Shown here piece by piece: positions 20,963 to 32,840 of a DNA stretch of 32,840 nucleotides (position 1 is its first letter; each line of letters begins with the position of its first letter). The stretch comes from a virus, in the UHGV virus genome UHGV-0259093; one strand, given 5' to 3'. Under the pieces are notes generated by a model, which was given only the letters and a program-made list of their open reading frames with translations, ran no database searches and was not told the DNA's origin. A program made the translations under genes and the position numbers.

Positions 20963-22868
20963 GTCTAGACGGACGTACTACACGACCTGTTTTTACTGGT
21001 GCTGGTTCTTCTTTATTTACTTCTTTATTTAGTCCTTTCTCTTTTTGTTTGGCGTTGAATTCGCGTAGTTTGCGGAATGGCTGATTACCTAATTTAGATA
21101 GATACCAGTGGAAACATATTAAAGCGTAGTTAAGACAATCAAGCGTTTCATTCCTTGCTGAACTAATTTTCTTAACCCATACCCACGCCCCAGCTTTAAT
21201 AACTCTCTTCTCACTTGATACCTGAATAAAGTAATCATCTGGTACTGAATGGCTGAAGTGTATTTGTACTTCACTACTATTACCACTATCCGATACTGCA
21301 CGGTTTAATAGTTGTCTAATATTACTTTTCCCTAAGTTTACGTTTAGGTTTATTAGACTATGACCACCAGCCGTAGAGCCTTTAAAGAGTGGGTTAGTAT
21401 TTGAAGTACCGCCCTTGATTGGTTTAAAGATTGTCGATGCACTACAATAGCGATATACCGTACTGGTTGCGTTACCGTTCGAACTATCTACAAAACCTGC
21501 AAGTACTTTAAGTGGTTTACCGGATACGGTTTTAAAGTTAGTTTGTGAAAATGCTGTTAGCTTATTCCATGCGGGAGCCTCTATTTTAGTACAGTCAATG
21601 CTATGAATACTGCGATGATCGAGTACATAAAGATTCTTTTCACTTATTCCTAACGTTGTTACTTCAAGGCGGTCTAACTGTTGGTCTACACCTAGTACGA
21701 TTCCTTGACAGTCATCCGGCACGGTATCTATATCTATTGAACTATCACGTAGGTTTTCAAGTAATACTAAATCATGATCGGTATTCTCTTTATCAATATA
21801 AGGAAGTCCTAAGACGTTATTGTAGAATGAGGCTAGATCAAATGTATAATGTGCTTCGGCAAAATCCTGTACTATTGATTTGATCGAGTTAATCGGGGAG
21901 TATAAACGGCTAATATGATACCCCATGATATCCGTTACTTCTGGTACTGTAGCTATCCATTCACCCTTACGTACCATTCTTACACGTTCGGCTTCTGTGA
22001 TTACATTATTACACTTAGGACATTGTAGTTTTGCTGTCTCTGCATCTGGAATGCGACGACGACCACCATCAATAATTTTCCAGTCGAATTTAACATTTTC
22101 AAATACTAATTCATGTGCATGATCACAATGTGGGCAAGGTACGTAGAACTTCTGTTTATTACTTTGCTCGTACTGCTGAGTGATTAAATCATTCTCATCA
22201 AGTGGTGTAGAACAAACCATAATAAGAGGGTTGCTAAAAGCCTTTGTACGCTGTTCTGCTAGCTTTAGTGGGTTCCCTTCATCACCATCTGCATCTACGT
22301 TAGATATTTCGTCAAGAAAGATACGGGGGGCTGTCAAGCCTCGCAAATTCGCACTACTACCCAATGTTAGGAAGTACGTAAAAGTACCGTCTAAGTTTTG
22401 TTGTGTCTTATCATTATTAGTATAGTTTTTATCATTCTTATTACTGACTAGATTTTTAAGTACTGCACATGCTTCGATTACTGATTGCCATTTACCAGTA
22501 CGAAACTTACTAGTAGTGCTGGCTGTTGCACCTGCGAAAATTAGATTGCTTGGATCATTTGCGAGGAAGTAGTACATACTATTCTGTAAAACTGTTGTTT
22601 TGAGAAGTTGTGCACTGCTCATCAAAACTATTTTTCTAATTCTTGGATTAGTAATGTCATTTATGGGCTTGTGCTGAAAGGAAAATAACTTTACGCGTTG
22701 TCCTTGTAGTTCCCCATCCGGGAATACTAAATTATTCTCTACCCATTCCGCTGGTAGTTGTCGCTTCGGAGGTAGGATCGACTTCGCCGCCCTCGTTAGT
22801 ACCTTCATCATCTTCTGGTAGTTGTTCATCCGTGTATGTTCCTTCATATTCATAGCTACCAATTTCAT
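20940..22868 (-). CDS. terminase large subunit, GpA family
   Basis: 642 aa. PCPHCDHAHELVF, GVDQQLDRLEVTTLG and ARNETLDCLNYALI parallel lambda gpA ACPHCGEEQYLKF, GIDSQLDRYEMRVWG and RRNEALDCFVYALA. Several in-frame Met near the N-terminus, so the true start may be later than 22868. Confidence 0.9.
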   Translation of the reverse strand: MKLVAMNMKEHTRMNNYQKMMKVLTRAAKSILPPKRQLPAEWVENNLVFPDGELQGQRVKLFSFQHKPINDITNPRIRKIVLMSSAQLLKTTVLQNSMYYFLANDPSNLIFAGATASTTSKFRTGKWQSVIEACAVLKNLVSNKNDKNYTNNDKTQQNLDGTFTYFLTLGSSANLRGLTAPRIFLDEISNVDADGDEGNPLKLAEQRTKAFSNPLIMVCSTPLDENDLITQQYEQSNKQKFYVPCPHCDHAHELVFENVKFDWKIIDGGRRRIPDAETAKLQCPKCNNVITEAERVRMVRKGEWIATVPEVTDIMGYHISRLYSPINSIKSIVQDFAEAHYTFDLASFYNNVLGLPYIDKENTDHDLVLLENLRDSSIDIDTVPDDCQGIVLGVDQQLDRLEVTTLGISEKNLYVLDHRSIHSIDCTKIEAPAWNKLTAFSQTNFKTVSGKPLKVLAGFVDSSNGNATSTVYRYCSASTIFKPIKGGTSNTNPLFKGSTAGGHSLINLNVNLGKSNIRQLLNRAVSDSGNSSEVQIHFSHSVPDDYFIQVSSEKRVIKAGAWVWVKKISSARNETLDCLNYALICFHWYLSKLGNQPFRKLREFNAKQKEKGLNKEVNKEEPAPVKTGRVVRPSRRGGGFFK

Positions 22869-23463
22869 TTAATTGATCATCTATTTTTTCCTGTAGTTTG
22901 ATTTTTAATTCTAATGCGTCTGCTGATTCGAATAATTCAACATAACTTGACGCGGGAATACTTCTTAATACTTGGCGTAGTTGGTAGAAGTATTGGGATA
23001 AAGTTTGCTGTACTACTGCTACTGGTATTAGCTCGCCGGATTGCTGACGTAATTCCATTTCTTTAATATCAGCTTCTGCTTCTAACTTACGTAGTGTTGC
23101 TTTTTGTATTTGGCCTTTTGTATCACCGCTTCTTAGTGGTTCGATTACGTTTGCAAGTAACCAATCGTCAACTAATTTCTTAGGCCAGGTGATATCTAAA
23201 CCTTTACCAGACCATATACGGCTAACAGTAGAATGCTCTACGCCGAAACGATCCGCGATTTCTTGCCACGTGTAGCGGGTTCCATCGTCTTTAATTTTTG
23301 CCATTTTGTTTAGTCCTTGTTTAGTACAATAAACCTGTACTTTCCTTTTATTTCGTTTTGTTTGTTTTCGATTAGAAATCCCACGAATTTTAAATACAAT
23401 TCGCGGCGAAAACTCGATTTTTTTGTTCTCAATTAGAGAACCTAAAGTTAAAACTTCACTCAC
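22732..23463 (-). CDS. terminase small subunit with HTH; likely true start at ATG 23304 (MAKIKDD...)
   Basis: YTWQEIADRFGVEHSTVSRIW helix-turn-helix, acidic C-terminus, directly upstream of the large terminase. The track start at 23463 is a GTG. aagga RBS precedes the internal ATG. Confidence 0.65.
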   Translation of the reverse strand: MSEVLTLGSLIENKKIEFSPRIVFKIRGISNRKQTKRNKRKVQVYCTKQGLNKMAKIKDDGTRYTWQEIADRFGVEHSTVSRIWSGKGLDITWPKKLVDDWLLANVIEPLRSGDTKGQIQKATLRKLEAEADIKEMELRQQSGELIPVAVVQQTLSQYFYQLRQVLRSIPASSYVELFESADALELKIKLQEKIDDQLNEIGSYEYEGTYTDEQLPEDDEGTNEGGEVDPTSEATTTSGMGRE

Positions 23464-23533: not shown

Positions 23534-24472
23534 ATGAAACACATAATCCAAACCAGAAGTGTTTTTAAGGATATCGAAGACTCTTTATTTAGTGAGTTGC
23601 ATTCAGCTAAGACAAGTATCAAAATCTGTGTTGCATGGATAAACTTTGAGCTTTTTGAAAATATATTATTATCTAAGGCTAAAGAAGGTGTTGAAGTTGA
23701 GATATTAGTTAATAATGATTATATCAATACAAAATTTCTTGATAAAATATCTGATAATATAAAACCATTAATTAATCTAATTAAAAACCCTATTAGTAAC
23801 CACTTAATGCATCATAAATTTTGTATCATTGATGATGAAGTTTTGATTACTGGCAGTTATAATTGGTCAAAAAGAGCACCATATCATTATGAAAATATAA
23901 TAATCATCCGTAATGATTTCAATCTAATAATGCAATTTAAACATGAGTTTGCAGATTTAAAATACATGGGTGCAATGCCAAGTACAGAATTTAATGCATT
24001 TAAAGTAACCAAAAATCTCAATAGATTTGTTGTTGGCACATATAGTTCATCTGTGGGGATATATGAAACCGTCACATTGCAGTTATGGGAAATTGATATT
24101 AACAACTTAACTTTTGAACGACATGGCGAAATGGATATCCCTTTCTTCAATTATTTATTAGATATTAATACTGATGATCATTATCTTATTGATGAAAAAG
24201 AAAGGTACATCGATCTATATGATCAAGAGCGTAGACAGATGGAGACTATCCAAAGTCATTTTAGAAGATTAAATTGTTCAATTCATGCTTATGGAACAGC
24301 AATAATAGCGAACGAGAGCGAATACCTTGAAGGTTATGAAGAGCCTATTCGTGTAATTCACTTCAATTGGATAGATATGCGATTAAGCAAAGTATTACCC
24401 TCTTCTTTGCCCGCAACTATGGAACTTGAAGGATTATGGCACGAAATATATGCTCCAAATGGATATATTTAA
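23534..24472 (+). CDS. phospholipase D-family (single HKD motif, Nuc-like) nuclease with an uncharacterised ~160-aa C-terminal domain
   Basis: HHKFCIIDDEVLITGSYNWSKRA is a canonical HxK(x4)D(x6)GSxN motif. RBS aagga 6 nt before the ATG. Markedly AT-rich. Confidence 0.75.
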   Translation: MKHIIQTRSVFKDIEDSLFSELHSAKTSIKICVAWINFELFENILLSKAKEGVEVEILVNNDYINTKFLDKISDNIKPLINLIKNPISNHLMHHKFCIIDDEVLITGSYNWSKRAPYHYENIIIIRNDFNLIMQFKHEFADLKYMGAMPSTEFNAFKVTKNLNRFVVGTYSSSVGIYETVTLQLWEIDINNLTFERHGEMDIPFFNYLLDINTDDHYLIDEKERYIDLYDQERRQMETIQSHFRRLNCSIHAYGTAIIANESEYLEGYEEPIRVIHFNWIDMRLSKVLPSSLPATMELEGLWHEIYAPNGYI

Positions 24473-24489
24473 ATAATATTCTATAATTA

Positions 24490-24864
24490 ATGAGGAACGG
24501 TATTATGTCTAATTATCCTATACCACTTAGCCTTGAATTTAATAGTCAAGATACTGCTAATATCATTTGTAGTTATCTAGAAAAAAATCATCAAGATTCT
24601 ATTTTAAAAACCATATTAAATATAGATTTGTCTTTTATTGATTATCGTGCACAATCTTCTAATTACTTTATAATTAATGACGTTGAATATATTGGAGATA
24701 ATAATTATATTTTATATTATAAAATAAACTACTACATTTATAATCTCTGTAAAGATATGGATATTGATGATGACTACGAGACTTCGATAAATTTTACATT
24801 GAATAATGGATTTTTAGTATTTGATATAATTGATTGTGAAAGAAATATATCAGATGAAATATAG
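24490..24864 (+). CDS. small acidic protein, partner of the PLD nuclease; likely start at ATG 24505
   Basis: RBS gagga 8 nt upstream of the second ATG (MSNYPIPL...). Asp/Glu-rich (DMDIDDDYETS, DIIDCERNISDEI). 32-nt gap after the PLD gene. Confidence 0.55.
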   Translation: MRNGIMSNYPIPLSLEFNSQDTANIICSYLEKNHQDSILKTILNIDLSFIDYRAQSSNYFIINDVEYIGDNNYILYYKINYYIYNLCKDMDIDDDYETSINFTLNNGFLVFDIIDCERNISDEI

Positions 24865-24928
24865 CCATATTTAATTATCACTTAAGGATTTCAACATCAG
24901 GATTTAAATTTTAATTATATATAATAGT

Positions 24929-24960
24929 AAAAGCCTAATACTCATCAGTAATAGGCTTTT
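24929..24960. terminator. bidirectional terminator between convergent genes
   Basis: 9-bp stem aaaagccta (24929-24937) / taggctttt (24952-24960), 14-nt loop, with A and T runs forming part of the stem ends. Confidence 0.55.
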
Positions 24961-24967
24961 ACCTAAA

Positions 24968-25387
24968 TTATAATTGATTCAATCGATAGATATTAGATGT
25001 ACTTGAGCCATCGCTATACACCTCTGATATAGTCAGTTTGTTTCCATCCACTTTGTATTTTACTACACTATCAGCCGGATCATTTCTCCAACGACCTGAG
25101 CTATCTGGATTGTTTGATGCCCACATAACTTGATCATCAATCAGTTTGCACTTGATAGCCCATCTTGTGCTGTCATCTTTACGTATGTAATGGACATAGG
25201 CTACATCAGATTGAATCTTATCAAGCTTCATTATTTTATGATCTCGCCCAAACATAGATGCAGCCGCCGCTTTGCAGATCTGACCAACATTAGCTTCCGC
25301 TGCGTAGAGTGAAGAACTGAACAATAATGGCACAATCACTAATAACTTTATCATCGCATATCGTCTCGTAGTAAAAATTAATTTCAC
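24968..25387 (-). CDS. secreted or periplasmic protein of unknown function
   Basis: Signal-peptide-like N-terminus (MIKLLVIVPLLFSSSLYAAEA). Start 2 nt after the stop of the HNH endonuclease gene, implying co-transcription. Confidence 0.55.
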   Translation of the reverse strand: MKLIFTTRRYAMIKLLVIVPLLFSSSLYAAEANVGQICKAAAASMFGRDHKIMKLDKIQSDVAYVHYIRKDDSTRWAIKCKLIDDQVMWASNNPDSSGRWRNDPADSVVKYKVDGNKLTISEVYSDGSSTSNIYRLNQL

Positions 25388-25388
25388 C

Positions 25389-26114
25389 TTATTTCCTTAA
25401 TAACTTTTTTAATTCCTCAACTGTCTTCATTTCTTTTCCAATATGAATCATTGCATGACAGTTTGCACATAAAGGTATAAGATCTTCAATTGGGTCAATC
25501 TTATAGCGTTTACCAATAGTATGTAGTGGCACTATATGATGAACATGAATATAATTTTTTCCGTGACTTCCATACACTTCTTCAAAATTAAAACCACAGA
25601 CACCACAACTCAAACCATGTTTATCGATACATTCTTTTCTAGCCTTTGGATCTCTCTCATAGTACGTAGCAATCCTTTGATGCTTTTCACCTTCATAGTA
25701 TTCACTTTCTATTTCAGGTGTGAATGAATAGTAATCTTCATCGGTGGCATACCAATCTCCATCTTTTTTAGTAAGATATTTTCGTACTATTTTCTTTTCA
25801 AAATGTTTAATCCTAGCAGCACCATTTTCAGTTGTTTTCTCATGCCTAGTCTGGCTAAAGGTGAAAAGACTATACCCTTCATGTAAAATTTTATCTATGT
25901 GTTCGATAGATTGTGTATAACCATTTTTTTTGTGTCCATTTACATTTTCACGCCAACTGCTAGCCAAGATTAAAACTTTCTTACCATCATCTGATCTAAG
26001 ATCTTCCCAAGCTCCAAAAATTATTTTTTTGTTGATCTCATCAATAAATGACCAACTCCAGTTATCATTTTTACATGTAGCACCCAAAGAACGCATGAAC
26101 TCTGTTCGGGACAT
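25389..26114 (-). CDS. HNH-family endonuclease of restriction type (COG3183-like) with an uncharacterised N-terminal domain
   Basis: C-terminus ERDPKARKECIDKHGLSCGVCGF...IHVHHIVPL...DLIPLCANCHAMIH carries the Cys pair and His/Asn-type HNH motif of predicted HNH restriction endonucleases. Confidence 0.75.
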   Translation of the reverse strand: MSRTEFMRSLGATCKNDNWSWSFIDEINKKIIFGAWEDLRSDDGKKVLILASSWRENVNGHKKNGYTQSIEHIDKILHEGYSLFTFSQTRHEKTTENGAARIKHFEKKIVRKYLTKKDGDWYATDEDYYSFTPEIESEYYEGEKHQRIATYYERDPKARKECIDKHGLSCGVCGFNFEEVYGSHGKNYIHVHHIVPLHTIGKRYKIDPIEDLIPLCANCHAMIHIGKEMKTVEELKKLLRK

Positions 26115-26151
26115 TTTTCATCCTTAAAATATGTGACCTACATCACATGAA

Positions 26152-26232
26152 ACTATCGACTGTAGGAGGTTTCTATCCTTCGTAAAGCTAACAAACCTAC
26201 CCAAAGTAGATAGAAACCTCCTACAATCGATA
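26152..26232. repeat. 25-bp inverted repeat (24/25 match) with 31-bp spacer in a divergent intergenic region
   Basis: ctatcgactgtaggaggtttctatc (26152-26176) versus gatagaaacctcctacaatcgatag (26208-26232). Each arm contains aggagg. Confidence 0.6.
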
Positions 26233-26317
26233 GTGTATGTGTGTTCCTTTTGATGGTAAAGTATTAATATAGTGTTACCTAGACTGGGTGTACATATAAT
26301 CAATATTTGGGTTTGAT

Positions 26318-27028
26318 ATGCTTAATCTCACTAAATGTAATTTACTTTTGATCGGCACTGTAATAACTCTATTACTGATAGCTATTCTTGTAGGTATAAA
26401 AATACTATTCTCCGATTCTAATCCAGATCTAGGCAGCTTAGCAGATTGGATCAGTTCTGTATCCGCAATAGGGACTCTTGGTGTTGCCTGGTTAGCTTAT
26501 AGTAAAGCTGATGACTACATTGACAAAAAAGCTTCGGAAAGAGGAATTGATATCCTTGTCAATATGGTAACTGAATCATTCGTTGCTTATTTCAACTCAC
26601 TAAATGAAACTAATTTCCATGCTTCAAAACTTGAAAATAAAATGATATTGATTGGCTTGGTTGATGAAAAAGTAGATTGCAATATTGAACTACAATCATT
26701 AAGAGAAAAAATCATAACTCTCTTCGAAAATAGTCATCAAATAGACAAAGATTTTATAAAAATGAAAATAATGAAAATATCAAAACCCAGTGATATTTTC
26801 TACGATCCAGTAACTAGCGATGATACATTGCAAGCGTTAAAATTAGCATTTCATAAACTGAACACTGAAATTTGTGAGAATGAAAATCAATACAACATTA
26901 ATAATGATTTACTTAGCGAAAATATCAACTTTATTAAAAACACTACCGAAAAGTTAGCCCATGATATTCGCAAACAGTTCTTTACCTCGCCGAATACTTA
27001 TAAAGATTATTTTGGAAATCTGTCTTAA
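26318..27028 (+). CDS. two-TM membrane protein of unknown function, paralog B of the 549-1289 protein
   Basis: N-terminal helix LLLIGTVITLLLIAILVGI followed by DLGSLADWISSVSAIGTLGVAWLAY. Perfect TATAAT at 26294-26299 upstream. Confidence 0.7.
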   Translation: MLNLTKCNLLLIGTVITLLLIAILVGIKILFSDSNPDLGSLADWISSVSAIGTLGVAWLAYSKADDYIDKKASERGIDILVNMVTESFVAYFNSLNETNFHASKLENKMILIGLVDEKVDCNIELQSLREKIITLFENSHQIDKDFIKMKIMKISKPSDIFYDPVTSDDTLQALKLAFHKLNTEICENENQYNINNDLLSENINFIKNTTEKLAHDIRKQFFTSPNTYKDYFGNLS

Positions 27029-27073
27029 ATTATACGCTATCAAATATTCCATCAACATAAACAAGGAAAGTAG

Positions 27074-27772
27074 ATGACTACTCTCACTAGAACTTATAAT
27101 TTACCAAATGAGCTAGTTGAACATTTTTCAAATAACATTGTCTATTTCGAAAAACTTTTGTCTAAGGATTTTTCTGACTTAAATGTTAATGTAGCACCAG
27201 AAGACATTAAGAAAATAGAAAAATCTTTCGAAGTATCACATAGAATACGTGATTTCGAAATCAATCTGTATTGGCAAAGACTGAACTTCCTTTGGGCCAT
27301 TACAGCATTGCTATTTGCTGGATGGGGAACATTGATCTTTAAAATCATCGAATTCAATGGAGGGGAAGCACCTTATATTATATTTGCCGCCTTATCATTT
27401 CTCTCACTTATAGGTGGGATTGTAACTATATTCACAAGCTTTATCATTGAGGCAGGTAAGCATTGGCAAAAGGTTTGGGAGTTTCATGTTCACGCTCTTG
27501 AACCTTTTGTATCAGGTCATTTATATGCAATTCAGTTTTCTTATAAAAATAAAAAAAAGGCATCTATAAGTAGAAGCGTAGAAACTTTCAATTATGCTTT
27601 GCTGTTTCTTTGGGCATGTTCAGCAGTATTCGCCGCAATCATCCCTTCACAAATAGGGAACGGTCTTGCAGGCATTATCCAATTAGTTATTTCTCTTCTT
27701 ATAGTTGGTGCTTTTGTTTATATACGCAACTCTGTTACTAAAAAGGAGTCTATTAAAATTCAGCTTGATTAA
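27074..27772 (+). CDS. four-TM integral membrane protein of unknown function
   Basis: Hydrophobic segments FLWAITALLFAGWGTLIF, YIIFAALSFLSLIGGIVTIFTSFII, FNYALLFLWACSAVFAAII, GIIQLVISLLIVGAFVYI. Follows paralog B by 45 nt. Confidence 0.65.
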   Translation: MTTLTRTYNLPNELVEHFSNNIVYFEKLLSKDFSDLNVNVAPEDIKKIEKSFEVSHRIRDFEINLYWQRLNFLWAITALLFAGWGTLIFKIIEFNGGEAPYIIFAALSFLSLIGGIVTIFTSFIIEAGKHWQKVWEFHVHALEPFVSGHLYAIQFSYKNKKKASISRSVETFNYALLFLWACSAVFAAIIPSQIGNGLAGIIQLVISLLIVGAFVYIRNSVTKKESIKIQLD

Positions 27773-29478: not shown

Positions 29479-29964
29479 TTAGTTGTCTTTTGCAACCTTT
29501 GTATATGTCTGTCTATGTGTACTTCTATTGTACTTTTCATTCATGAATAGCGTGATATTGATACATGACATTCCACCAGTGTATAACGCCTTTACTTCAT
29601 CTTTTTGTACTGGTGTTAGACGTGGTTCATTTTGTTTCTTACGTACTGCCTTACATGAATTTTCACTATATGTAATCCACTGCAAATTAGAAATATTGTT
29701 GTCTCGTTTATCACTATTGATATTATCTACAACTAATCTTTTATTTGTTTGGGGTTTACTTAGAAATGTTTCTGCTACGAGTCTGTGTGTCTCTATCGGA
29801 TATGATTTAGATTTCCCATCCTCATAAACAGTTAAAGTAACTTTATAGTACCCATTACTTTTACTATAACTCTGTGTTAGATAATTACCCGTTTTAGTAT
29901 TGCGTACTTCTCCGTTACTACTTACTTCATAATTTACATATTGTGTTTGTTTCCATAATGTCAT
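29479..29964 (-). CDS. HNH homing endonuclease (NUMOD4-like N-terminus plus HNH_3 motif)
   Basis: YEVSSNGEVRNTKTGNYL and HRLVAETFLSKPQTNKRLVVDNINSDKRDNNISNLQWITYSEN are the hallmark motifs of phage-encoded HNH homing endonucleases. Confidence 0.8.
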   Translation of the reverse strand: MTLWKQTQYVNYEVSSNGEVRNTKTGNYLTQSYSKSNGYYKVTLTVYEDGKSKSYPIETHRLVAETFLSKPQTNKRLVVDNINSDKRDNNISNLQWITYSENSCKAVRKKQNEPRLTPVQKDEVKALYTGGMSCINITLFMNEKYNRSTHRQTYTKVAKDN

Positions 29965-30941: not shown

Positions 30942-32840
30942 CTAGATCTGGTCTATCCGATAACGCTCTATGAACTCTTTACGTGTTAAACCAGTCGATT
31001 CTAATGCAGTGGCTATATCCTTTGGAACTCGACCATTCAAGGCAATACTATATGTATTGCCTTCATACACAATGTCTACTCGATCATACTTTCCGGTATT
31101 AGGCCAGAATGAAGCCCCACTTATTTCACTATAACCAACCACTTCTAACATCTCATTAGCAGTATTGAACAGATCTAAATAACTTTGTTCAATTTTATCA
31201 AGTTGTTCCACTGCTTTATTAAATAATGGCAGATTGCTAGTGGTAAGAAATCCTTCATCTCTGATACTTACATTATCAACAGAAGAAAATTCAACTTTAA
31301 ACGCCCAATGTGGTTTTCTATCAGTTCCACCAAAAACTAACCATTCATCTTTAAAATGATACTTTATTTTTATCGTTATACACCCATCAGTTTTATCAAC
31401 TATAACACTTTCAATAATAGAACTAATTACTTTCCTTATTTTATTTCTATCCGTATCCTGCATATTTGTAAAAACCGCCCACTGAATAAGAATCATAAAT
31501 TCATTTATATCGACTTCTAGAGATCCTTTACCTTTCAGTGAATATAAGCGTTCTTTTAACTTATCAACTTCCAGAACAGTCTTTTTACGTTCCATATCAA
31601 ACGCATTTAGTTGAACTGCTAACGCACTAACATTAGGAGCAATTGCTATTGCTTGAGCCATGTTTGTTATGCGAGATTCCAGATCAGTTATCAACGTTTC
31701 TTTTCTACTGAGGTCTTCTTCTATCACAGTTGTGTCAATACCATCTTTTAGTCTCTTATTCATGTAACCGATCAGTAGTGAAATGATCGTACAGTGTTCA
31801 ACTAATTGTGCTGATATAGACCAGCCAGAACAGTTTTTTTGTAAGTGAACCCCATTAGTACAAATATAGCGAGCACTGCCATGATTCATGAAAGAATGCA
31901 TAGTTCCTCCACACTTGCTACACCGTAACACCTGCAACCCTGATAACAATTTAATTTCTTCTACTTTGTCTTTCTTAGCCTTGAAGTTGTTTTGCTGCTT
32001 ACGTTCAGCCAAGGTTAAATACTCTGCTTCATCTTTGCATAACCATGGATAGTAGTTATCAAGTTTGTAAGTAGCACCACCAGCATTGATAGTCCTTTCA
32101 CCAATCAACGCCCGATTATCACGCATCTTTTTCAATACCTGATAATCCCATTCTTTACCCTTTAAACCATTAGGATATTTTTTATCGAGATGACGCTTTA
32201 CTGTATAGATGCCATTCCCATCTAAAAACATGTCTATAGCTTCGCGAGCGATACTCCAGTAAACGGGATGTTCTTTTACTGCTTCATATTGCGAACCTGA
32301 ATCATCTATCCAAAATGGATGGCGACCAACTGACTTAATGTTTACTGGCAACCCTGCTTTATGACGTTCGACCAAGGCAACAACATTGCCTATGGTCCTG
32401 TTAGATTTCGTTTCTGATTCTTCATTGCCACGGATAAACATCAGAATAGAAATCATCAGATCAGTAGGGTTTTGTCTGATGGATTCTCTGTTATAGACCT
32501 TCCGATCCATTCCTGTGACAATCGTTAGCCCTAAACCAATCAATTCAAGGAATAAACGAAGTGCTTCATCCACCTGATCGCGTGATAGTCGGTCGAGGTT
32601 TTCACAGTAAAGCCAAGAGTCAGACGGTATAGCATTATTTTTTACGGCGTCTATGAAGTCACCCAACTTACCCGCCCTATTTTTTCCCCTGTAAGCACTC
32701 GTGCCAGGTTCCAAAATTTCAACCATTTCAAGCCCCGCTTCTTCAGCATAGGCTTTCGCTGCCGCTACCTGCCTGTTCTTGGTTGTTCCTTTTTCTTGGC
32801 GATCACTTGACCACCTGATATAGCTATAAAGTTGCGGCAT
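30942..32840 (-). CDS. large serine recombinase (phage integrase type)
   Basis: N-terminal YIRWSSDRQ with catalytic Ser and LDRLSRD typical of the resolvase domain. 632 aa, Cys-rich zinc-ribbon-like segment (CSKCGG...CTNG). ATG is the last three bases of the window. Confidence 0.9.
   Translation of the reverse strand: MPQLYSYIRWSSDRQEKGTTKNRQVAAAKAYAEEAGLEMVEILEPGTSAYRGKNRAGKLGDFIDAVKNNAIPSDSWLYCENLDRLSRDQVDEALRLFLELIGLGLTIVTGMDRKVYNRESIRQNPTDLMISILMFIRGNEESETKSNRTIGNVVALVERHKAGLPVNIKSVGRHPFWIDDSGSQYEAVKEHPVYWSIAREAIDMFLDGNGIYTVKRHLDKKYPNGLKGKEWDYQVLKKMRDNRALIGERTINAGGATYKLDNYYPWLCKDEAEYLTLAERKQQNNFKAKKDKVEEIKLLSGLQVLRCSKCGGTMHSFMNHGSARYICTNGVHLQKNCSGWSISAQLVEHCTIISLLIGYMNKRLKDGIDTTVIEEDLSRKETLITDLESRITNMAQAIAIAPNVSALAVQLNAFDMERKKTVLEVDKLKERLYSLKGKGSLEVDINEFMILIQWAVFTNMQDTDRNKIRKVISSIIESVIVDKTDGCITIKIKYHFKDEWLVFGGTDRKPHWAFKVEFSSVDNVSIRDEGFLTTSNLPLFNKAVEQLDKIEQSYLDLFNTANEMLEVVGYSEISGASFWPNTGKYDRVDIVYEGNTYSIALNGRVPKDIATALESTGLTRKEFIERYRIDQI

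Follow-up and report, generated by a model that had tools for sequence, protein, structure and literature searches.

Type IV restriction enzymes are a main bacterial answer to phages with modified-base DNA. Modification-dependent restriction enzymes have been described as a combinatorial set, in which different sensor domains are joined to different nuclease domains (PMC6765204, PMC7641849, PMC12191111). In EcoKMcrA, encoded by the e14 element of E. coli, an N-terminal recognition domain that binds 5mC is followed by a McrA-type HNH domain; the gene is carried by a prophage-like element and lacks a methyltransferase partner (PMC12707154). Other described combinations are SRA-HNH (TagI, ScoA3IV/Sco5333 and TbiR51I), SBD-SRA-HNH (ScoMcrA), EVE-HNH (VcaM4I and TspA15I) and EVE-DUF3427-DUF3883 (YenY4I), and the genes of PUA-type enzymes do not adjoin methyltransferases (PMC6765204). 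The nuclease described here is encoded in a 32,840-nt stretch of viral DNA (UHGV-0259093; hereafter the window). It resembles EcoKMcrA and the PUA-type enzymes in these genetic features, and shares the modular sensor-plus-nuclease logic of the EVE-HNH enzymes and YenY4I. It falls outside the SRA-HNH, EVE-HNH, SBD-HNH and McrA-orthologue groups, however, because its putative sensor half is a different, uncatalogued module.

The initial annotation of this region had proposed two ORFs, encoding an HNH endonuclease with an unknown N-terminal domain and a secreted protein. Both are present on the minus strand (Table 1). The nuclease has 285 full-length homologues (best E = 5e-163) and is thus not the product of a chance ORF. 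Residues 170–224 correspond to Pfam HNH (PF01844, E = 3.6e-8, 33.9 bits against a curated cut-off of 21.4), and the likeness to type IV-like HNH restriction enzymes that had been suggested was borne out by the PADLOC type IV model mREase_IV, which matches residues 146–235 (1.6e-9). The best solved relative is E. coli McrA (6ghc, E = 4.4e-8), aligned over residues 146–234 alone; when the family profile was used as the query, ScoMcrA (5zmm) was the next structural relative. In an alignment of 47 homologues with 44–92% identity, C170, C173, C216, C219, H192, H193, N218 and H220 are invariant. Together with the Pfam and McrA matches, this corroborates the C-terminal cysteine pair and HNH motif of the initial annotation, and, as judged from sequence, the zinc site and catalytic motif of the HNH domain are intact. 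As in EcoKMcrA, the four-cysteine zinc site belongs to a C-terminal McrA-type HNH domain with a preceding YxRD helix, and the protein has two domains with the presumed recognition domain at the N-terminus. We considered the possibility that the two proteins constitute a colicin-type toxin and its immunity partner. This was rejected, as the HNH domain is of the four-cysteine McrA type, while the neighbor is exported and matches no known families, including immunity proteins. An AlphaFold model built on the 47-sequence alignment had a mean pLDDT of 81, compared to only 36 for the single-sequence model. The HNH domain was confidently predicted, block means for the N-terminal domain ranged from 74 to 93, and linker residues 132–149 fell below 50.

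Table 1. Features of the nuclease locus in the window, with counterparts of the leader hairpin in other loci.
Feature	Position	Strand	Details and basis
Hairpin between convergent genes, likely bidirectional terminator of the HNH-secreted unit	24927–24962	.	16-bp stem, 4-nt loop; 94% complementary inverted repeat
Secreted (periplasmic) protein gene	24968–25354	−	128 aa; ORF list; gene calls of 128 aa (L001) and 129 aa (L004)
Alternative GTG start of secreted gene	25387 (24968–25387)	−	139 aa
N-domain+HNH nuclease gene	25389–26114	−	241 aa; stop codon 25389–25391; ORF list, homologues, AlphaFold model
McrA-type HNH domain with four-cysteine zinc site, residues 150–241	25392–25667	−	Pfam HNH, 6ghc, ScoMcrA 5zmm, invariant residues
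Linker, residues 129–149	25668–25730	−	Residues 132–149 low-confidence in model; variable in 47-homologue alignment
N-terminal domain, residues 1–128	25731–26114	−	Uncatalogued conserved module; putative DNA/modified-base sensor
Perfect TGTGA-N6-TCACA palindrome (CRP-core-like; TGTGA-CCTACA-TCACA)	26132–26147	.	Between leader hairpin and HNH ribosome-binding site
Long leader hairpin upstream of HNH gene	26152–26234	−	26-nt arms; conserved loop TTGGGTAGGTTTGTTA, covarying stem; RNA fold
Leader hairpin counterparts	L147 2974–3068; L151 7446–7538; L148 5640–5700		
Candidate sigma-70 promoter of HNH unit, TGTACA-17-TATATT	26266–26294	−	Consensus scan, 9/12 matches; weak evidence

The N-terminal part of the protein had been called unrecognizable, and this held true for the databases searched: residues 1–~128 (the N-domain) have no match in Pfam, NCBIfam, PHROGs, PADLOC or PDB sequences, and Pfam scans of the 47 family members at E ≤ 5 revealed no consistent N-domain family. 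Neither the profile of the whole family nor that of the N-domain alone found an N-domain relative in the PDB, the best chance match being ribosomal protein S6 (E = 0.48). A Foldseek search of the model against the PDB and BFVD returned nothing at E ≤ 1e-3. SRA and EVE were among the reader folds proposed for comparison, and at the sequence level both were negative (hhalign probabilities of 0.25% and 0.35%, respectively). The initial annotation had also raised a homing-endonuclease DNA-binding module as an alternative, but no NUMOD, AP2 or IENR module was found in the protein. The N-domain is the best-conserved part of the nuclease protein, with the motif GATCxNWxWSWSF...IIFGAW(D/E)...W54...QSxEH. 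Near-invariant residues are F6, G11, W21, S22, F33, W36, I49, W54, G60, L83, F86, I102 and L114, with W21 invariant even in a broad set of 49 sequences.

When a profile of the N-domain alone was run against 1.84 billion cluster representatives, 311 proteins were matched at E ≤ 1e-3, 97 of them at E ≤ 1e-30. Among the proteins fetched, 225 matched the N-domain over its full length; 147 represent the N-domain+HNH form of 231–290 aa, and 33 exceed 290 aa. Among 20 longer proteins scanned against Pfam, the N-domain occurs together with EVE and HNH in either order (P0206, P0260 and P0271), with SAD_SRA and HNH_2 (P0333), with a weak DUF3427 match and NOV_C, which is DUF3883, a PD-(D/E)XK domain (P0254), with a GIY-YIG-like MUG113 domain (P0258) and with VWA (P0265). 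EVE was the only other domain in P0238, and NOV_C in P0218 and P0262. This pattern of sensor and nuclease fusions is that described for modification-dependent restriction enzymes.

These fusions also separate the N-domain from the known readers. P0206, P0260 and P0271 contain EVE and the N-domain as two distinct modules, and our protein differs from the EVE-HNH enzymes in having no EVE (PF01878) match. The N-domain and SRA must likewise be distinct modules, since they stand side by side in P0333, and, unlike in the SRA-HNH enzymes and ScoMcrA, SAD_SRA (PF02182) was found in 0 of 47 family members. The model for phosphorothioate-dependent SBD-HNH enzymes of the ScoMcrA type (NF045808) gave 13.9 bits against a cut-off of 180 and covered only residues 150–181. 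EcoKMcrA orthology is contradicted by the confinement of the 6ghc alignment to the HNH half, so that the N-terminal 5mC-binding domain of McrA is not covered. MspJI, LpnPI, AbaSI and PvuRts1I have SRA-like readers that go undetected by sequence search, but their nuclease domains are PD-(D/E)XK or Vsr-like rather than HNH, their domain order is different and similarity scores were low. P0254 has the layout of YenY4I with the N-domain replacing EVE, although its DUF3427 match is weak. YenY4I itself, suspected from the Yersinia origin, was rejected as the identity of our enzyme, being an EVE-DUF3427-PD-(D/E)XK enzyme of 595–601 aa; CMoRE and END nucleases were rejected on account of their other architectures. 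Our literature search found no publication describing the N-domain+HNH family, nor did we find a Pfam model or solved structure for it.

The better superpositions of the N-domain model were with SRA domains, with ≈100 residues matched at 3.3–3.4 Å. AbaSI, PvuRts1I, LpnPI, UHRF1, SauUSI and MspJI were lower-scoring, and Hjc superimposed over 86 residues at 5.2 Å. The order of elements in the model is compatible with the alpha-beta-beta-beta-alpha-beta core of a PD-(D/E)XK fold, and matches to Hjc and EcoRV are weak. In the homologue alignments, neither a conserved D...(D/E)xK catalytic signature nor any other acidic/lysine signature was found in the N-domain. Judging from the model, the N-domain is most likely an SRA/PUA-like reader, an assignment that is not yet established. 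We tentatively raise the possibility, which we rate below an even chance, that it represents a new class of DNA-modification sensor, SRA-like or with a fold of its own, for a mark poorly covered by known readers; candidates would be hypermodified pyrimidines, derivatives of 7-deazaguanine and other bases specific to phages.

The nuclease had been taken to be prophage-borne. Indeed, both proteins are 100% identical to those of a chromosomal locus in Pseudocitrobacter faecalis DSM 27453 (L023), as well as to those of IMG/VR contig UViG_2770939623_000002, showing that the element is an integrated temperate phage. The gene lies in a 4.3-kb accessory island (23534–27772) between the small terminase gene (22732–23463; phrog_57) and further minus-strand phage genes. 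A megablast search of this island against deposited phages gave no match. The nuclease gene is a loner on mobile DNA. It occurs beside terS/terL in lambdoid prophages (window/L001 and L004), in the same slot in E. coli shared with SMODS+SLATT (L007), in a prophage with a serine recombinase (L008), in a Yersinia conjugative region adjoining MobA (L009–L012), in an E. coli island (L013) that also has resolvases and, at a distance of 1.4 kb, an N6_N4 methylase, in a Pseudomonas island together with Gabija-like and GmrSD genes (L133), between gpD and ogr of a Xanthomonas P2-like prophage (L134), in Azotobacter with an IS110 flank (L136) and on an IncFII Klebsiella plasmid. L013 is the only one of 11 annotated contexts with a DNA methyltransferase within 5 kb. 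There is no fixed partner: in a Pfam census of 148 neighbors (the 25 commonest of 62 families), no neighbor family recurred in more than 4 of 28 viral loci. The family is present in 63 of 5426 complete E. coli genomes (≈1%), where it is always annotated as "HNH endonuclease", and on 124 plasmids, more than 100 of them from Klebsiella and Enterobacter; 94 of the 124 are conjugative.

The gene downstream of the nuclease had been placed 2 nt after its stop codon. This position is that of the GTG start of the longest ORF, whereas the favored ATG at 25354 is separated from the HNH stop by 34 nt. The ATG is favored by gene callers (L001 and L004) and by where most family members in the alignment begin; the GTG, which some gene calls use (P0121, 139 aa), is preceded by the better Shine-Dalgarno sequence (AAGGA, 6-nt spacer). 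The signal peptide reported previously was confirmed upon reading the sequence as one of classical Sec type (MIKLLVIVPLLFSSSLYA/AEA, with the slash marking cleavage). A Tat signal (TRRYAM) in the 139-aa version was considered and rejected, because the family N-termini favor the shorter, Sec-type start. The cleavage site is of AxA type, two cysteines are invariant and there is a GRWRxDPxD motif. The protein belongs to a family of 77 proteins restricted to Enterobacterales; it has no Pfam, PHROG or PDB relative and no tblastn match in deposited phages. With either start, the two genes likely form one transcription unit, as had been suggested, since there is no terminator between them and a 16-bp hairpin follows the second gene. 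This hairpin has no T-run and was therefore missed by a simple terminator scan.

Small Sec-signal proteins are encoded in the same slot in L008 (5745–6158), where the protein is 19% identical to that of the window, and in L148 (5730–6149), and this site may be one where small exported proteins recur as cargo. After a fixed copy of the secreted family on an Enterobacter chromosome (L020 4001–5331) come an unrelated ORF of 128 aa and an immunity protein of the CdiI_ImmP type, a layout that hints at a link to contact-dependent competition loci.

The leader hairpin upstream of the HNH gene has a predicted folding energy of −60.9 kcal/mol (z = −7.4). Four phage lineages share an identical 16-nt loop core, TTGGGTAGGTTTGTTA, on differing stems; in the three lineages compared, 8 of 34 stem pairs showed compensatory double changes. 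The loop recurs in L148 on an unrelated, G+C-rich stem that precedes entirely different cargo, with no HNH gene, indicating that the hairpin belongs to the phage cargo slot and not to the nuclease gene. An Rfam search gave no family, only sub-threshold miRNA-precursor look-alikes. The hairpin may be a structured regulatory RNA or a processing site of the accessory-gene slot. The palindrome, ≈20 nt upstream of the HNH start, is the sole perfect match in the window and is partly kept as AGTGA...TCACA in L004 and L008. Its position is unfit for class I or class II activation of the HNH gene, and its role may be that of an operator or of a small RNA hairpin.

Several other genes of the prophage were noted. 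The ORF at 23534–24472 (+) encodes a PLD-family nuclease domain in residues 19–141 (PLDc_2, 5e-20; NucT-, DpdK- and DrmC-like), followed by ≈170 residues without a family match, a layout that resembles that of PLD-based modification-dependent nucleases with variable C-terminal sensors (PMC12191111). From this resemblance, the island may hold two modification-dependent enzymes. A 124-aa ORF (24490–24864, +; phrog_13663) follows. Divergent from the HNH unit are a 236-aa protein of no family with an N-terminal transmembrane helix (26318–27028, +) and a 232-aa 8xMP octameric membrane protein (27074–27772, +; PF24838, 1.3e-16; weak SLATT_5 match); this pair is kept in the related phages L001 and L148 and may be a membrane effector module. 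A large serine recombinase lies at 30942–32840 (Resolvase/Recombinase in the L001 annotation). The ≈30-kb prophage is AT-rich, with ≈37% G+C and 28–35% in the accessory island. Enterobacteriaceae hosts have G+C contents above 50%, against which that of the prophage seems low.

On balance, we favor the view that the nuclease is a stand-alone restriction endonuclease of the type IV-like, modification-dependent kind, and that a temperate phage carries it as accessory cargo. By analogy, it would work like McrA, TagI or VcaM4I. The N-domain would bind invading DNA that contains a non-canonical base, perhaps flipped into a tryptophan-lined pocket (W21, W36 and W54), and this binding would tether the nuclease to the marked DNA. 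The McrA-type HNH domain, stabilized by its four-cysteine zinc site, would then nick or cut close by, probably as a dimer, as McrA and TagI do. By analogy with other HNH nucleases, H192/H193 may act as the general base; N218 and H220/H224 are part of the same invariant motif. Host and prophage DNA would be spared by the absence of the mark, making a methyltransferase unnecessary in this scheme, and a lysogen would gain protection from phages whose DNA carries it. Dam methylation of GATC and Dcm methylation of CCWGG are found in most E. coli, and the enzyme therefore presumably tolerates these marks.

A rather unlikely alternative is that the protein is a defense nuclease whose N-domain does not read modified bases, but senses a structure or sequence in DNA, a phage protein or some other cue of infection, or serves as a DNA clamp or dimerization module of a catalytically dead, PD-(D/E)XK-like type, so that the enzyme acts like an abortive-infection or otherwise gated nuclease. 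The SRA superpositions, however, are better than that with Hjc, and no D...(D/E)xK signature is conserved. The N-domain furthermore sits where EVE sits in YenY4I-type proteins, and it is the sole non-catalytic domain in the ≈245-aa majority form. Without gating, a non-specific nuclease that had neither an immunity gene nor a methylase would be lethal, yet the gene has no fixed partner. It is far less probable still that the phage itself makes use of the enzyme, whether as a packaging HNH associated with the terminase (HK97 gp74 type) or as a homing endonuclease. Terminase-adjacent HNH genes are common in cos phages, and in the window, L004 and L007 the gene is found just upstream of terS/terL. 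The terminase here, however, is of the lambda GpA type with its own nuclease domain (PF05876, PF20454), and in relatives the same slot is occupied by unrelated cargo: SMODS+SLATT in L007, and in L148 other small proteins. Plasmids, ICEs and chromosomal islands frequently carry the family without a terminase close by, while tblastn against 50,697 deposited phage genomes gave matches to the HNH half only and no full-length homologue. The window also contains a second, ordinary phage-type HNH gene (29479–29964, −; 161 aa; phrog_59, 2.4e-26, and phrog_959), which is unrelated and lacks the N-domain, and the homing reading is further disfavored by the absence of NUMOD, AP2 and IENR modules.

The nuclease and the secreted protein might also form a functional two-gene system, for example, a nuclease with an envelope-located sensor, exclusion or immunity factor, which we consider improbable. 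The genes are only 34 nt (or 1 nt) apart, and the pair has moved jointly between two phage backbones, that of the window (also L001) and that of L004–L006, in which the two proteins are 92% and 98% identical to those of the window. In the non-phage loci L014–L016, the genes are adjacent in the opposite order (HNH 62% and secreted protein 73% identical), and in L008 a 72%-identical nuclease is also followed by a small signal-peptide protein, albeit an unrelated one. Against this, only 2 of 36 viral N-domain+HNH loci contain the secreted gene, and it is missing beside the nuclease gene in all other annotated contexts, those of E. coli, Yersinia, Pseudomonas, Xanthomonas, Azotobacter and the Klebsiella plasmid among them. 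Conversely, 28 of 31 loci with the secreted gene lack HNH (17 of the 18 genome loci and 11 of the 13 viral ones); a stable chromosomal site in Enterobacter and a Yersinia defense island belong to these. The HNH family is spread over many phyla, while the secreted family is confined to a single order, and direct contact between a periplasmic protein and a cytoplasmic nuclease is impossible. The secreted protein is thus probably an independent periplasmic cargo hitch-hiking with the nuclease gene, and a functional link keeps its small probability because of the reversed-order case.

If the N-domain is not a modification reader, the enzyme is an ordinary McrA-like accessory nuclease. Earlier sensor domains gave insight into the phage–bacterium arms race as well as mapping tools, with MspJI, AbaSI and PvuRts1I used for 5mC and 5hmC, and END nucleases have provided tools for hypermodified DNA (PMC12191111). 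If the N-domain does read a modification, it would join the sensors SRA, EVE, YTH, ASCH, DUF3427, winged helix, SBD, McrA-N and inactive EndoIII. Should it prove to be a new sensor class, it would define a family of type IV nucleases comprising ≈300 clusters, located on prophages and on conjugative plasmids in Enterobacterales, Pseudomonas, Xanthomonas and other taxa, and the enzyme could be used as a reagent to map its mark. Such a system would also bear on phage therapy and on plasmid transfer in clinical Enterobacterales.
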